From the UHGV virus genome UHGV-1770886: DNA of 17,434 nucleotides. One strand, 5' to 3'. A model generated the notes under the pieces. That model saw only the letters and a program-made list of their open reading frames with translations. It searched no databases and was not told the origin of the DNA. Shown piece after piece: positions 9,754 to 16,966 of this stretch. The DNA comes from a virus. How positions within the stretch are numbered: position 1 is the first letter of the stretch; every line of letters begins with the position of its first letter. A program made the position numbers and the translations under genes.

Positions 9754-9965
9754 CAGAACCTCGCAAGCCGGTACCCGGGATGCCCCCGTCGTCGTGTAAT
9801 CAGAGCCGCAAGGCGGCGCTCCCACTCCTGCCGTCCCTGCCGGATCTCAGATAAGTTTTCCATGGTCATCTGCTGACCATTAAAGGTGACGGATTTTCCG
9901 TCCAGCACCGCCATTTCAGCTTCCGTATAACGCTGAATCATGGCTTCGATATCATTCTGGTTCAT
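9753..9965 (-). CDS. W: head-tail joining / head completion protein (lambda gpW-like)
   Basis: 70 aa, AVLDGKSVTFNGQQMTMENLSEIRQ ... ITRRRGHPGY is gpW-like (lambda W: ...[28 protein letters not shown]...RRRGPAGFYV). ATG at 9965 has GGAGG 6 nt upstream and overlaps the terminase stop (ATGA). Confidence 0.8.
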   Translation of the reverse strand: MNQNDIEAMIQRYTEAEMAVLDGKSVTFNGQQMTMENLSEIRQGRQEWERRLAALITRRRGHPGYRLARF

Positions 9966-12064
9966 AACCATCCTCCGGAAGTCAGCCAGGGGTTAACATC
10001 GTCAGTTACTGTTTTCTTCCGTTTTTGTTTTTTAACAGGCGTGGATACCGGTTCCGGTGTGGGTGACGGTTCGGTACTGTCCGGGACACACTCCAGCCAG
10101 GTTTCCCGGCTCGCCCACTCCGGTGCATCCGGCCAGCGGATCTTTTCGTATCCATGCAGAATGACCAGAGCCTCGGCATACACCATCAGGTCAAAAGCTT
10201 CGTTGGCACCGCGACCCGGCTTACTCCATTTCCCGTCACTGCTCCGCTCTTCATACGTCAGTTCGTCGTAAAACCAGCTCCCCAGCCAGTCAGGGAAATG
10301 CACATAGCCGGGACCTGGCGAGTCACGCCATAACGCGTTATTCACCCGGTCTTTCAGGGCATCCGTCTGAAGAAGCCAGAGCGGTACATCACCTGCGGCC
10401 TGCGCCCGTCGGCCCGTTCGTCCGGTGTTATCAGGGAATGTACGGGTGATCAGTTTTGCGCGCCGGATGCTGTCGCCCTTAAACAGGTAAATACGTTTAC
10501 CAAGGCCATCACGACGGCAACGACGCCAGAATTTATAGGCATTATCAGTGACTCCGTCTTCACCGCCGGAGTCCACCGCCATTGCCATCAGTCGCATTTG
10601 TTGAGAAGGATCGGAGGCCAGCGGCCAGCTTTTATGAAAAACATCCGTCAGCAGGACATCCCAGTCTTCCGGATAGCTGGCCGGATCAATTCGCTGGCTC
10701 TCCCCGTCGCTGTCACCGCGCAATGACTGCGTGATGTTGTAACGATCAATAATCCAGCGTTCGCCACGGCTGCCATAGCCCGTTACCTGAACCACAAAAC
10801 GGCGATGACGTCCCGCCTGCACATCAACTGTCGCCACCAGGAAATTAACGCCATCCGGCACACTGCGGGAAGGAACTGGCTCTGCCCGCTGCTCAAGCAG
10901 TTCACTTTTTCGTTGCTCCATGCTGGCACGGGGAAGATAAGGTAATCCCCAGTCGGTATTGATAACCGTCTTGAGTGTTTCTTCACTTCCGGTTGTCTCG
11001 TATTCCTGTTCTGCAGCAAGCAGTTTGTAAACGAGTTGCGAGAGTGTCTGGTAAGCAGCTGCCGGACCCTCCATCCAGAATGACGCAATACGTGAGCGTC
11101 GGGGATCACCATAACGACTGCCATCCGCATTGATGGATTCACCATCCCGCAACCAGACCCCACGTCCGTTCAGCTCACGTTTTTGTTCAGGCATAATCCG
11201 TCCTGAACAGGAAGGACACTGAATATAAGCCGCCTCACTTGCCAGCACGGGATCGGCAATATCACGGAAACCAGCAACCACATCGCCGCAGGGCTGAAAA
11301 TACTCACCACAGTGTGGACAGGGCCAGTACCAGCGACGGCGATCGCCACGGTTATAGAGCGACAGTATCCCCGTGGTTGGTGGAGCCTCATGCGGTGAAG
11401 TCCGTCGCCATTTCACATCCTTCACATCCCTGCCGGGGGAACTCTCCACCAGCGTCATACCACTGGACATAAATGTGGTGGTACGTTTTGAGGCAAGAGA
11501 GAAGGCATCCCCCTCGCCATCAATATCTTCCGGAAAACGGTCATAATCCGTCAGCGCCACGCATTTATAATCTGATGAGGACATGATATTGACTGACGGC
11601 CAGCCGATTTTCAGGTAGTTGCCAGCAAGGAATGTTCTGTCATAAACGTTGTTGTCATTTTTGTTCGGACTCAGGCGACTGACCACTTCCGGGCTGACGC
11701 GAAACGTTCTGGCAAGTCGTTTTTTGGAGTGTTCGCGGGCTTTTTCCTCCGTCATCTGAATGATCAGCATATCAGCAGGATCGCAAATCACGTTGTAAAT
11801 CACCCAGCCGTCAATCAGGCCGATAGTCTTGCCAGTTCGTGCCGGGCCAACAAATATCACTGCGTCGTATTCACGCGAGGCCAGGCAGTTCATCGGCTCA
11901 ATAACATACGGTGCCACCAGCGGATCCCACGGGACTGAGTTCCCGGCCCCCATGGGCACCCGCATATACTGAGCAACGGCATCAGCAACCCGCATTCGTC
12001 TCGGTGCGCGAAGGATATAACCTGAATCGGTTCGTGCTGCCTTTGCGGTTTCCTGATTCAGCAT
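9962..12064 (-). CDS. A: terminase large subunit (lambda gpA-like)
   Basis: 700 aa. Walker A-like GPARTGKT. CPHCGEYFQP zinc-ribbon-like motif parallels lambda A ACPHCGEEQYL. Start ATG overlaps the small-subunit stop (TAATG) with AGGAGGAG upstream. Confidence 0.9.
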   Translation of the reverse strand: MLNQETAKAARTDSGYILRAPRRMRVADAVAQYMRVPMGAGNSVPWDPLVAPYVIEPMNCLASREYDAVIFVGPARTGKTIGLIDGWVIYNVICDPADMLIIQMTEEKAREHSKKRLARTFRVSPEVVSRLSPNKNDNNVYDRTFLAGNYLKIGWPSVNIMSSSDYKCVALTDYDRFPEDIDGEGDAFSLASKRTTTFMSSGMTLVESSPGRDVKDVKWRRTSPHEAPPTTGILSLYNRGDRRRWYWPCPHCGEYFQPCGDVVAGFRDIADPVLASEAAYIQCPSCSGRIMPEQKRELNGRGVWLRDGESINADGSRYGDPRRSRIASFWMEGPAAAYQTLSQLVYKLLAAEQEYETTGSEETLKTVINTDWGLPYLPRASMEQRKSELLEQRAEPVPSRSVPDGVNFLVATVDVQAGRHRRFVVQVTGYGSRGERWIIDRYNITQSLRGDSDGESQRIDPASYPEDWDVLLTDVFHKSWPLASDPSQQMRLMAMAVDSGGEDGVTDNAYKFWRRCRRDGLGKRIYLFKGDSIRRAKLITRTFPDNTGRTGRRAQAAGDVPLWLLQTDALKDRVNNALWRDSPGPGYVHFPDWLGSWFYDELTYEERSSDGKWSKPGRGANEAFDLMVYAEALVILHGYEKIRWPDAPEWASRETWLECVPDSTEPSPTPEPVSTPVKKQKRKKTVTDDVNPWLTSGGWL

Positions 12065-12555: not shown

Positions 12556-12724
12556 ATTTCCTCCGGAGAGCTTTAAACATGCATCGTGCGAACAACTTTA
12601 AGAAAACGCGTTCGATGTCGAACAAAAAACACTCAACTCGACATACAAAAAACAAACAACCATTAATAATCAATAAGATGCAAAGATGATGGTGGCCGAT
12701 AAAAATGCAAAAACTAGCCTTTTT

Positions 12725-13314: not shown

Positions 13315-13510
13315 TTTGTCGCTCCATTCGTTTGCTCTTCACTTGCGGCTAAAAATATAACGTCAAATCACTCAGCATGAAAGAGTGAAAGTTTCAGCGC
13401 GTTTCCCTTACATAATCTGTCGTTTGTATTCTCTTCAGGCATACCGGAAAGACTAGGTATTGTCACACAACCAATACCATTGACAATCGAGATTTATATC
13501 TATTCGGTAA

Positions 13511-13546
13511 TGTTTAAATATAACAAAACCCCGTAAAAACGAGGTT
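13511..13546 (-). terminator. putative rho-independent terminator downstream of the gns-like gene
   Basis: Minus-strand AACCTCG-TTTTTA-CGGGGTT (7-bp stem with one G.U) followed by a U-rich run (TTGTTATATTT). Confidence 0.4.
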
Positions 13547-13609
13547 TATGGGTAATTTGTATTGTTGAATAGCATCTGATGAGAAATTGATGCTAATACT
13601 ATAAACATG

Positions 13610-13783
13610 CTAGATTAAATCAATCTTGATATCATAGCTTTCAAGACCAGTCATTTTTTCCCGTGCAGTAAACTGGATACTGGTAACTTCTTTCCCGGTC
13701 TTTTTCTTAAGCTCAATGATTTTTTTTGTTATATATTCAGAAATATCTGCTTCTGTTTTTGTTTTTAACTCTTCAATGTTCAT
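13610..13783 (-). CDS. gnsB: GnsA/GnsB-family small protein (57 aa)
   Basis: MNIEELKTKTEADISEYITKKIIELKKKTGKEVTSIQFTAREKMTGLESYDIKIDLI matches my recollection of E. coli GnsA/GnsB in length and motifs. AGAGGAA upstream; second of two tandem ATGs chosen for spacing. Symbol gnsB is from Qin-prophage-like synteny and is not verified. Confidence 0.55.
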   Translation of the reverse strand: MNIEELKTKTEADISEYITKKIIELKKKTGKEVTSIQFTAREKMTGLESYDIKIDLI

Positions 13784-13955
13784 CATTTCCTCTTTTAGTC
13801 TGTTATGACTGTCCTGGTACACAGTAGTGTCAATTATATGGAGCAAACGTATAAAAGATAAGATGAAACATCGCAATAATCAACATACGACGGTCTAAAT
13901 TTCACACAAACAGATAAAGATGATTATCATTTATTATCAATGCATTAGAATCAAA

Positions 13956-14186
13956 TCAATTCAAGAGTCTCATTGCTGCTTCCAGAATTTCTTCTGAAGT
14001 TACATGTCGATCCGCTGCTACATAAATGACTTTATGATCTCCGGTCAGAGATGGAAACCCTGCAGCCATTACAGTGAGGTGTGTTGTTTCGCCATTTGGA
14101 TATTCACGCATGATGGTGTTAACTCCGGTCATCACTGGCACTACCATTGCTGGTTCAGAGTTAAAAAAAACTATTATTTTTTTCAT
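13956..14186 (-). CDS. hypothetical small protein (76 aa from ATG; track gives an 89-aa GTG-initiated version)
   Basis: ORF track 13956..14225. The GTG start at 14225 would sit inside the terminator U-tract, so ATG 14186 (MKKIIVFFNSEPAMVVPVMTGVNTIM...) is preferred despite a weak SD. AT-rich. No family recognised. Confidence 0.35.
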   Translation of the reverse strand: MKKIIVFFNSEPAMVVPVMTGVNTIMREYPNGETTHLTVMAAGFPSLTGDHKVIYVAADRHVTSEEILEAAMRLLN

Positions 14187-14230
14187 AATGTTACCGTAAT
14201 ATGTGAGTATCCATCGACTAGACACTAAGC

Positions 14231-14250
14231 AAAAAAGCTCCCGAAGGAGC
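14231..14250 (-). terminator. putative rho-independent terminator downstream of the csp gene
   Basis: Minus-strand GCTCC-TTCG-GGAGC (5-bp GC-rich stem, tetraloop) followed immediately by TTTTTT (plus-strand AAAAAA at 14231..14236). Confidence 0.5.
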
Positions 14251-14457
14251 CTTCATTTTCACTTTCTTAAATCTAACGACAGATGGCTAACATTTAAGTA
14301 TTGTGAAATATTATCAAATGTAATCATCATTGATTTACAAAAGATACATTTTGCCCCGAAAGGATTTCTGTCAGAAACATCAAAAGATGATGTTCTATAC
14401 TGAGAACCATGGCAACACGGGCATCTAAAGTGAATATGGTTTGTAATATTTTCTACC

Positions 14458-14670
14458 TCAAAGTGCCACTACATGAACAGCTGCAGGGCCTTTAGGTCCG
14501 TTCTCAATACCAAATTCGACTTCCTGATTCTCAGTTAACGTTTTGAAATCGTTGCTCTGAATAGCTGAGAAATGCACAAACACATCTTTGCTACCATCTT
14601 TCGGCGTGATGAAACCAAAACCTTTTTCAGGGTTAAACCATTTCACTAAACCAGTCATTTTGTTAGACAT
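14458..14670 (-). CDS. cspI: CspA-family cold-shock protein (70 aa)
   Basis: [38 protein letters not shown]... carries the canonical RNP1/RNP2 cold-shock-domain motifs (KGFGFI, VFVHF). AAGG SD and csp-like leader (AAAGGTAATAA ATG). Paralog call cspI rests on synteny (csp next to Rz) and recalled sequence. Confidence 0.85.
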
Positions 14671-14814
14671 CATTATTACCTTTTGAAGAAGTTAGCCCTT
14701 GGGCAGAATGGTCCGAAAAAAAATATCAGAGAGAAAAACCAACAAGGAAATCTCAAGAGGTACAAATAATAAAATTATAACAATGACTGCTTCAGATAAT
14801 TTTGTAACAAACCA

Positions 14815-14850
14815 GAACACCATTAACGCATGATTAACCAACCATAGCAA
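14815..14850 (-). promoter_or_regulatory. candidate sigma70 promoter for the csp gene with ~145-nt leader
   Basis: Minus-strand TTGCTA (plus 14845..14850), 17-nt spacer, GTTAAT (plus 14822..14827), resembling the cspA promoter (TTGCAT / CTTAAT). AT-rich UP-like sequence upstream. Sequence inspection only. Confidence 0.3.
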
Positions 14851-15033
14851 GGATTACTTTTGTAAAGAAAAACACACGAATGAAACAATAGCTTTATTTA
14901 TTAATAAAACGTGTCATTCTGTCTAATGACCTTTTATCTTACCCTTAAGATTTCAAGGATTTTGACTCATGGAAGAGTCCTTTTTATTTAAATTTCACAT
15001 TCAGCGCTAAAAATAATCCGATTTAATATTAAT

Positions 15034-16061
<1,028 letters not shown>

Positions 16062-16195
16062 GGATATTTATCAGGATTTATCGGTTTCTGAACCCTGGAT
16101 ATGTTAAGCATTCAGCCCGTCAGTGGTAGGACACTGGCGCTCTGGTTAAGGATTATGGGGGATGCTGGCTGAGCTACCCCATCTGAGGATTTGAT

Positions 16196-16435
16196 ATGCA
16201 AAAAGAAGTTTTTATCAATATTACAGCTGACTGCTCATCTCCTGCATCAACAGCAAAAGAAATTGAAGCTCTTAAATATATGATTACAGTAATATTTTCC
16301 GTATTGGACCAGAATGAAAAAAATGGAATCATTCATCAATTAAATGAACATGTAAATAATCCATATATCAAAAGCAATCTGGAAATGCTGCTACCAATGA
16401 AAGATATTGGAAAACCAACTGAAACAAAAGGCTAA
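16196..16435 (+). CDS. hypothetical 79-aa protein on the opposite strand; AT-rich cargo ORF inserted between YdfR-like gene and endolysin
   Basis: ATG 16196 with GAGGAT 7 nt upstream. Markedly AT-rich relative to flanking phage genes. Stop overlaps the stop of the convergent minus-strand ORF. A hairpin CGCGCC-N10-GGCGCG follows at 16482..16503. No family recognised. Confidence 0.45.
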   Translation: MQKEVFINITADCSSPASTAKEIEALKYMITVIFSVLDQNEKNGIIHQLNEHVNNPYIKSNLEMLLPMKDIGKPTETKG

Positions 16436-16746
16436 CAACCAGTAATCGAGTTATCTGAACTGTTAATTTTTATGGTATACCGCGCCTCTGAACAGGGGCG
16501 CGTTTCTGGCAACAGCTCGTCCCCTTCACATAACCCGGCAGCAACATCCAGGAAGACCTGTCTGATGCTCCTTCTGGCTGCAGCCTCATAAAACTCCAGC
16601 GCGGCACCTTCAACACGGTCCAGCGAGATGTCCAGGTCAAAAATTTCACCGTCAAAGCGTTCTTTGTCCTGTAATGCTAAAGTTACCGTAACTTTATTCT
16701 CAAAATTGCGGATCCCTTTCACAATCAGTTCATAGTTTTGAGTCAT
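16432..16746 (-). CDS. hypothetical protein, YdfR-like (between holin and endolysin)
   Basis: 104 aa. ATG 16746 with GGAGAG upstream, 4 nt after the holin stop. Same position and size as the ydfR gene between essQ and rrrQ in the K-12 Qin prophage, as I recall it. Sequence similarity not verified. Confidence 0.5.
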   Translation of the reverse strand: MTQNYELIVKGIRNFENKVTVTLALQDKERFDGEIFDLDISLDRVEGAALEFYEAAARRSIRQVFLDVAAGLCEGDELLPETRPCSEARYTIKINSSDNSITGC

Positions 16747-16750
16747 TGAA

Positions 16751-16966
16751 TTACTCTCCCCGTGCCGCCTTACGACGGTCCTCTCTGATTTTGAAATACA
16801 GGTTAGTCAGATATGTCAGCAGCCCAAACAGCAGACTCCCCAGCACGCCTATTGCCGCCCACTGAGACGGGGAAACCCTGTCCAGCAACTGCAGGAACCA
16901 GTAGCCCGTTCCCACCGCTGACGTGGTGTATGACACACCTGTTGTGATTTTTTCCATCTGGTCCAT
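16751..16966 (-). CDS. S: class II pinholin, phage 21 S-like, with dual start (antiholin/holin)
   Basis: 71 aa from ATG 16966: [71 protein letters not shown], near-identical in the C-terminal two-thirds to recalled S21. Met1 and Met4 (MDQM) mirror the S21 71/68 dual start. GGGAGA upstream. The track's 106-aa N-terminal extension would run through the upstream terminator. Confidence 0.85.

Follow-up and report, generated by a model that had tools for sequence, protein, structure and literature searches.

Which transcription serves a cold-shock gene that lies between the lysis and the packaging genes of a prophage: the late transcript of the phage, or a promoter of its own from which the gene would be expressed as cargo of the lysogen? 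The question is raised by a stretch of viral DNA of 17,434 nucleotides (UHGV virus genome UHGV-1770886), hereafter the window, in which the genes are all encoded on the minus strand and a csp cassette is co-oriented with the lysis and terminase genes. An initial annotation, made from the letters of the sequence, had described the gene as a member of the CspA family with its own promoter, a long leader and a terminator, likely expressed from the prophage and also read through during late-gene expression. The locus is the known Escherichia coli gene cspI, already published, in a more complete relative of the Qin prophage. We favour, with a probability of roughly 93%, the reading that cspI forms a self-contained, cold-inducible moron cassette of a lambdoid prophage of the mEp460/Tritos/Qin type, located between Rz and cos/terminase. 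In minus-strand order the relevant features of the window are the following.

16966..16751, minus strand: holin gene (Pfam P21 holin S), the first in this order
16746..16432, minus strand: DUF1327/YdfR gene, between holin and lysozyme
16061..15528, minus strand: lysozyme gene
15034..15531, minus strand: Rz-type spanin gene, rzpQ homologue and last lysis gene (Pfam DUF2514, E = 3.6e-38; named rzpQ in identical E. coli records)
363 nt, minus strand: AT-rich gap from Rz to the csp ATG
14458..14670, minus strand: cspI, 70 amino acids plus stop
14259..14447, minus strand: YmcF/YnfQ-like second cistron of 62 codons, starting 10 nt past cspI
14231..14253, minus strand: GC-rich terminator hairpin with a T6 tail
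14186..13956, minus strand: ynfN-like gene
13783..13610, minus strand: gnsB-like gene
13547..13526, minus strand: second terminator-like hairpin (minus-strand scan); the next feature downstream is an ORF of 68 amino acids
12555..12064, minus strand: terminase small subunit gene (DUF1441)
12064..9962, minus strand: terminase large subunit gene

The cassette thus has Rz upstream and cos/terminase downstream, and its placement between lysis and packaging genes in the initial annotation is borne out. The cos site is expected at about position 12580 of the window, where the records of phage mEp460 start, and mEp460-type phages share 97-99% identity with the window in the structural genes. The description of the csp gene as lying 'directly after' Rz needs correction: Rz ends at 15034, and the −35 element and the csp ATG follow 183 nt and 363 nt downstream, respectively.

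Two further elements of this region deserve mention in their own right. A second AT-rich island (16062..16435, 33-38% G+C) separates the DUF1327/ydfR gene from the lysozyme gene and is absent as an insert from K-12 Qin. It holds an ORF on the opposite, plus strand (16196..16435, 79 amino acids) that has no Pfam match and is labelled 'hypothetical protein' in E. coli S88; the island looks like another moron within the lysis cassette. Between Rz and the csp promoter, an inverted repeat at 14964..14979 (GACTCATGGAAGAGTC), which also occurs in K-12 Qin, has the form of an intrinsic terminator on the plus strand only, with the tail CTTTTTATTT, and that strand opposes all nearby genes. The repeat could be a stop for antisense transcription over cspI or the relic of an opposite-strand moron.

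The product of the csp gene is 100% identical over its 70 amino acids to CspI of E. coli K-12 (b1552). The Pfam cold-shock domain model (PF00313) matches residues 5-69 at 108.4 bits (cut-off 27; E = 1.6e-31), and both RNP1 (KGFGFI) and RNP2 (VFVHF), as defined in PMC6719143, can be read in the translation. The best NCBIfam match is the CspG equivalog with 137.8 bits, which is under its cut-off of 144; NCBIfam has no CspI-specific model. The assignment of a CspA-family gene on the minus strand together with the late genes was therefore correct, and orthology to cspI is given by the identity to the K-12 protein, the synteny with rzpQ on one side and ynfQ-ynfN-gnsB on the other, and the RefSeq name cspI. 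The ORF (14673..14458, minus strand) opens with an extra in-frame ATG at 14673..14671; since K-12 has ATT where this first ATG stands, the second ATG, at 14670, was taken as the homologous start. The additional ATG immediately 5′ of the annotated cspI start (AATGATG here, AATTATG in K-12) is common to the 20 of 79 viral loci that have exactly this promoter and leader, and to several minor variants. It could supply one more methionine or change the choice of start site.

The elements from which transcription of cspI would start are listed below.

14854..14861, minus strand: AT-rich block AAAAGTAA, directly upstream of the −35 element and aligned with AAAATAA of cspA, cspB and cspG
14845..14850, minus strand: −35 element TTGCTA
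14822..14830, minus strand: extended −10 element, consisting of TGC (14830..14828) and GTTAAT (14827..14822), with a 17-nt spacer from the −35 element
14815, minus strand: putative transcription start, the C of CTGGTTTG, placed by counting the published 145-nt UTR back from the ATG at 14670

The promoter proposed in the initial annotation (TTGCTA, 17 nt, GTTAAT) is present exactly, at 14850..14845 and 14827..14822, and is homologous to the promoters of cspA, cspB and cspG. A generic sigma-70 scan did not call this site and returned 7 sites in the region, compared with an expectation of 8.8 from shuffled sequences. The promoter was missed because its −10 element lacks an A at position 2, and since the scan found no more sites than occur in shuffles, consensus matching carries no weight here and homology was used as the evidence. 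In the alignment with K-12 upstream regions, ATGCGTTAAT is identical among cspB, cspG and cspI, the TTGC of the −35 element is found also in cspA, and the AAAA(G)TAA block upstream of the −35 element lines up across the csp paralogues. By comparison with the cspA promoter, the AAAAGTAA block is a likely UP-element-like region. Compared with K-12 cspI the promoter differs at one base of the spacer, and promoter and leader together differ at 4 positions. The 79 viral loci compared have no more than nine promoter-plus-leader variants, all with the same hexamers.

PMC6719143 gives 5′ UTR lengths of 159, 160, 155 and 145 nt for cspA, cspB, cspG and cspI, and describes cspI as cold-induced, citing Wang et al. 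1999. The four starts that follow from these lengths share a single alignment column, one base before (C/T)GGTTTG. The start that had been placed at 14815 agrees with both the K-12 UTR length and this column, and is probably homologous to the +1 of cspA, cspB and cspG, its position being transferred from the K-12 literature.

Downstream, the cspI unit extends further than had been recognized. A second cistron (14447..14259, minus strand) matches the Pfam model PF23641 (YmcF-like) over its full length with E = 6.2e-34, its protein contains two CxxC pairs (CxxC...CxxC), and matching E. coli records annotate it as 'cold shock small protein YmcF'. The cistron opens with ATT, as annotated for K-12 ynfQ and ymcF, and its GAGG Shine-Dalgarno sequence overlaps the cspI stop codon. 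With no ATG, GTG or TTG start, this cistron went unseen in the initial annotation, which also missed the name of the gene and its literature, the two-gene unit with cspI as its first gene, and the non-conserved cold box discussed below. The combination of an ATT start and an overlapping Shine-Dalgarno sequence suggests translational coupling, reinitiation or IF3-sensitive control. The name ynfQ is also used in PMC6001520 for a different small ORF, located between ydfJ and ydfK and distinct from b4724, and that description was not used for the YmcF-like gene.

The terminator that the initial annotation had placed after csp exists, but it does not lie immediately 3′ of the gene: the second cistron is in between. 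It has the form AAGGCTCC-TTCG-GGAGCTTTTTT, with the hairpin at 14253..14234 and the T6 at 14236..14231 on the minus strand, and a folding energy of −12.5 kcal/mol. A generic terminator scan reported a hairpin at 14237..14250 in the plus-strand reading only, and our own scan of the minus strand identified the terminator for the csp strand. That minus-strand scan detected only two terminator-like hairpins on the coding strand from 15600 to 13500, at 14253..14234 and 13547..13526, and none between Rz and cspI. The csp transcript should therefore end at about 14231, past the second cistron, which would give a cspI-ymcF-like transcript of about 585 nt; judging from this arrangement the second cistron is probably co-transcribed with, or coupled to, cspI. 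K-12 cspI, ynfQ and ynfN respond alike to AZT, with an induction of about 6-fold (PMC11228462), and the similar induction is compatible with shared transcription.

The small genes next to the terminator differ from their K-12 counterparts. The ynfR homologue (14218..14256, minus strand) overlaps the terminator hairpin and is cut by a TAG to 12 codons (MKAPSGAFLLSV, then stop), which RefSeq labels 'too short'; K-12 YnfR has 21 amino acids and is reported to be cold-induced (PMC6001520). The ynfN gene (13956..14186, minus strand) encodes 76 amino acids, with an N-terminal extension of 25 residues (MKKIIVFFNSEPAMVVPVMTGVNTI...) compared with the 51 amino acids of K-12 YnfN, and its product has no match in Pfam or NCBIfam.

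An orientation shared with the late genes, with no coding-strand terminator to separate csp from Rz, would also suit a gene that lacks a functional promoter of its own at this locus and is transcribed only on the Q-dependent late transcript, which would make cspI a lytic-cycle gene and not cargo of the lysogen; the generic scan, with no call for TTGCTA/GTTAAT, points the same way. We consider this very improbable. Apart from one spacer base the promoter is that of K-12 cspI, and Qin is cryptic, yet cspI is cold-induced there (PMC6719143). The −10 block ATGCGTTAAT is present also in front of the chromosomal cspG gene, outside any late operon. Moreover, in the uninduced lysogen of Tritos (LF82), expression of cspI was 93-fold above the prophage background, with values of 59-fold for cspB and 27-fold for ynfN, and these genes are listed as morons (PMC9928086). 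Tritos is a functional prophage of LF82 and its cspI module is 94.5% identical to that of the window. By analogy with this prophage, cspI of the window would be expressed in the lysogen while the flanking phage genes are silent. Expression independent of late transcription, as claimed initially, thus agrees with what has been published for near-identical loci, namely K-12 cspI (PMC13271884, PMC6719143) and Tritos (PMC9928086).

The preferred reading, a moron cassette with a promoter of its own, includes transcription of cspI during the lytic cycle as well. Because there is no terminator between Rz and cspI, the strand is the same and the block is situated between Rz and terminase, late transcription would be expected to cross the cassette. 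In lytic growth, Q-modified late transcription starting upstream of holin would proceed through the cassette and into the terminase genes. The late read-through proposed in the initial annotation is thus probable from the arrangement of the genes. As for its cargo character, the block has a promoter (14850..14822), a terminator (14253..14231), a deviating composition and a location between Rz and cos/terminase, as is typical of morons; the G+C content is 31-40% over 13350..15000, compared with about 50% in the flanking phage genes. In K-12, where cspI sits in the cryptic prophage Qin, cspI and cspB are counted among the horizontally acquired Qin genes (PMC6379469).

If cspI is transcribed from its own promoter, its regulation would reside largely in the leader RNA, for which two features are relevant.

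14671..14815, minus strand: 5′ UTR of 145 nt, with 32% G+C compared with 50.5% for the window
14647..14795, minus strand: long stem-loop predicted at 37 °C, in both the minimum free energy (MFE) and the centroid structure

The AT-rich leader of about 145 nt in the initial annotation coincides in length with the 145-nt cspI UTR given in PMC6719143. It differs from the K-12 leader at 3 positions, one of which creates the extra ATG at 14673. It contains GGTTTG close to the transcription start (+3..+8), AAGCAGT, a T8 run (14723..14716) and the Shine-Dalgarno sequence AAGG (14682..14679). A GCCCAAGGGC hairpin occupies the position of the 'upstream box', with the GCC-N4-GGC pattern before the Shine-Dalgarno sequence conserved in the csp paralogues. 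The length of the T8 run varies among otherwise near-identical viral contigs, and the run is apical in the predicted long stem-loop.

A comparison of the leader with those of other csp genes, including a search for a cold-box element, had been set out beforehand as a check on the initial annotation, and its outcome is divided: the leader is conserved relative to other csp 5′ UTRs, but the strict motif is lacking. The Rfam model of the cspA thermoregulator (RF01766) matches 14828..14412 over its complete length (model positions 1-428 of 428) with 110.1 bits against a gathering threshold of 78 (E = 7.6e-28). In global alignments the leader shares 97 of 169 columns with cspA (z 5.4 against shuffles), 96 of 175 with cspB (z 3.0) and 89 of 165 with cspG (z 2.3). 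The conservation is concentrated in islands, which are the 5′ GGTTTG, AAGCAGT, the GCC-N4-GGC hairpin and AAAATGACTGGT; the latter, the 'downstream box' in the first codons, is invariant in 5 of 5 aligned sequences. The strict cold box is not conserved. In the paralogue alignments the 11-mer, with TGACGTACAGA as its canonical cspA form, retains only TG at +7..+17 of the cspI leader, compared with 9 of 11 matching positions in cspB and 8 of 11 in cspG. Locally, the cspI leader comes closest to the 11-mer with a gapped TGAAG--CAG at +22. In the MAFFT alignment cspI has a 16-nt gap at the cold-box site, which accounts for the shorter leader. PMC6719143 lists cspI among the cold-box genes, and the published definition of the cold box may be looser than the 11-mer used here.

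In the fold predicted for 37 °C, the segment 14795..14751 (+21..+65) pairs with 14688..14647, that is, with the Shine-Dalgarno sequence, both AUGs and the first ca. 24 nt of the coding sequence. For the first 220 nt the MFE is −50.5 kcal/mol, with a modest z of −1.96 against shuffles. Conservation of the fold was evaluated on the four paralogues, as the 80 viral loci are too alike for this purpose with their nine near-identical leader variants. When mapped onto an alignment of five rows (cspI, cspB, cspG and cspA), 76% of the cells hold standard pairs, compared with 35-47% in controls with the 3′ partners shifted by 1-3 columns, in a test that leans toward the structure because this was derived from one of the five rows. 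Ten pairs are altered on both sides in this alignment, and pairing across the paralogues reaches about 80% in the two helices covering the start region. Equilibrium folding at 10 and 15 °C returned the long stem-loop of 37 °C and recovered no cold conformer, so that thermodynamic prediction does not reproduce the cold form.

The switch has been described for K-12, where experiments identified the cspI leader as an RNA thermometer (PMC13271884). At 10 °C a register-shifted, shorter stem-loop forms inside the UTR in cspI, cspG and cspB, and the cspI UTR diverges in sequence from those of cspG and cspB while it behaves similarly (PMC13271884). The fold predicted here for 37 °C agrees with the 37 °C conformer described for cspI in that study, and by analogy the allele in the window would switch as K-12 cspI does. 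The proposed mechanism would then be as follows. Transcription would start from the sigma-70 promoter (TTGCTA, 17 nt, TGc-GTTAAT) at about 14815. At 37 °C the AT-rich leader would draw the Shine-Dalgarno sequence, the AUG and the initial codons into a single long stem-loop; the mRNA would then be poorly translated, and according to the literature it is short-lived. At about 15 °C or below, a shorter fold within the leader would leave the ribosome-binding site free, and CspI, with its single cold-shock domain carrying RNP1 and RNP2, would serve as a chaperone that binds single-stranded RNA or DNA. The same transcript would also bear the ATT-initiated YmcF-like gene 10 nt downstream and would end at the hairpin 14253..14231.

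The cassette is common and uniform. The region 14200..15050 (851 bases) was matched in 2146 of 5426 complete E. coli genomes (about 40%), with at least 99% identity in 513 E. coli records and 100% in all 25 of the matches listed; the features annotated under the E. coli matches are rzpQ, cspI, ymcF/ynfQ ('cold shock small protein') and a hypothetical protein. The block also occurs, at 94.5-100% identity, in the records of phages HannyBb, mEp460_ev081, 2H10, PhiR63_1, PhiR42_1 and Tritos. IMG/VR contains 484 stretches with a gene for a relative of the CspI protein, and the 80 loci that were fetched all have, as far as their sequence extends, lysozyme and Rz upstream and YmcF, YnfN and GnsB downstream; TerS follows beyond GnsB in 29 of them, and many have a second csp gene upstream of the lysozyme gene.

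Such uniformity bears on the view that the cassette is an inert relic, left from recombination with the chromosome of the host and retained as a passenger without selection. In favour of this view, the region is AT-rich and compositionally foreign, and the small ORF next to it (ynfR) is truncated. The CspI protein is invariant, however, being 100% identical in 79 of 80 viral loci and in K-12, the promoter hexamers are unchanged across the nine leader variants of the 79 loci, and regulated expression is documented (PMC9928086, PMC13271884). We regard an inert relic as the least credible of the explanations considered.

A different view, which is compatible with the moron interpretation, holds that the cassette mainly serves the phage: CspI, made from late read-through as well as from its own promoter in the cold and acting together with the cspB/cspF pair across the lysis genes, would be an RNA chaperone or antiterminator for late expression, lysis and packaging at low temperature. 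CspA-family proteins can be transcription antiterminators, the position beside the lysis cassette is kept in 80 of 80 viral loci, many of them with the second csp upstream of lysozyme, and the module is retained in plaque-forming or inducible phages (mEp460 relatives and Tritos). The csp-ymcF-gns module is found, however, also at the cspG locus, which is not part of a prophage, and in the defective Qin, which argues for a benefit to the host, and we think it unlikely that service to the phage is the main role. A more specific form of this idea, which we rate as quite unlikely, is that the csp cassettes bracketing the lysis genes (cspB/cspF upstream and cspI-ymcF-ynfN-gnsB downstream) constitute a cold module of the phage, in which CspI and the coupled, AUU-initiated and zinc-ribbon-like YmcF, produced by late read-through, would be needed for antitermination or translation of late mRNA, or for the timing of lysis or packaging, at low temperature. 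If this were true, phage-encoded RNA chaperones would set the temperature range of productive infection.

As a discovery the moron cassette has little weight, as the gene, its 145-nt leader, the cold induction, the thermometer behaviour and the status as prophage cargo have all been published before. Beyond these publications the window adds allele-level details only, which are the extra ATG, the truncated ynfR and the long ynfN. The locus is useful as a positive control, in which a real promoter, leader and cargo logic were recovered from raw sequence by an unaided reader, and the analysis documents how fixed the cassette is: about 40% of complete E. coli genomes carry it, and the synteny is the same in 80 of 80 viral contigs.

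Morons of the lambda bor/lom type are likewise self-contained units of promoter, gene and terminator with a deviating composition, which lie beside Rz in the late region and are expressed by the prophage. Lambda bor, a lipoprotein gene, lies on the strand opposite to the late operon, whereas the cspI cassette is co-oriented with the late genes and would be regulated by temperature at the post-transcriptional level. With cspA, cspB and cspG, and with RF01766, the cspI locus has in common the −35 element, the extended −10 element, the column of the transcription start, the long leader, the GCC-N4-GGC hairpin and AAAATGACTGGT; the predicted long-range pairing between leader and start region is also kept. 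It departs from these paralogues in having no conserved cold-box 11-mer and in a leader that is shorter by 10-15 nt, with an identity to theirs of about 54-57% of the alignment columns.

The chromosomal cspG-ymcF-(ymcE)-gnsA locus of K-12 is paralogous to the prophage cassette; the DNA is 74% identical along 360 nt that start at the ATG and take in most of ymcF, and 73% identical in the gns gene. In the comparison with 13610..14670 of the window, cspH was seen to lie divergently upstream of the K-12 cspG locus, an arrangement that cspF and cspB repeat in the prophage. The phage cargo may have left the chromosomal locus behind as a fossil, or may have come from it.

The closest relatives are the cspI loci of other prophages. 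K-12 cspI (b1552, Qin) encodes an identical protein, and an overall identity of 96% holds for promoter, leader and coding sequence, as it does for the whole region compared with the Qin prophage, with the gene order rrrQ-rzpQ-cspI-ynfQ-ynfR-ynfN-gnsB kept; rrrQ-rzpQ thus precede and ynfQ-ynfR-ynfN-gnsB follow the gene in both. In comparison with K-12 Qin, the allele in the window has the extra in-frame ATG 3 nt upstream of the start, an ynfR of 12 codons and an ynfN of 76 instead of 51 amino acids, and its prophage retains the genes for terminase, portal, head and tail; in Qin the truncation follows nohA. In Tritos (LF82 prophage 3) and the mEp460-like phages, at 94.5-100% identity, the order is Q - cspB - S - ydfR - R - Rz - cspI - ymcF-like - ynfN - gnsB - cos. 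The cassette described here shows no essential difference from theirs, and the window represents a further member of that phage group.
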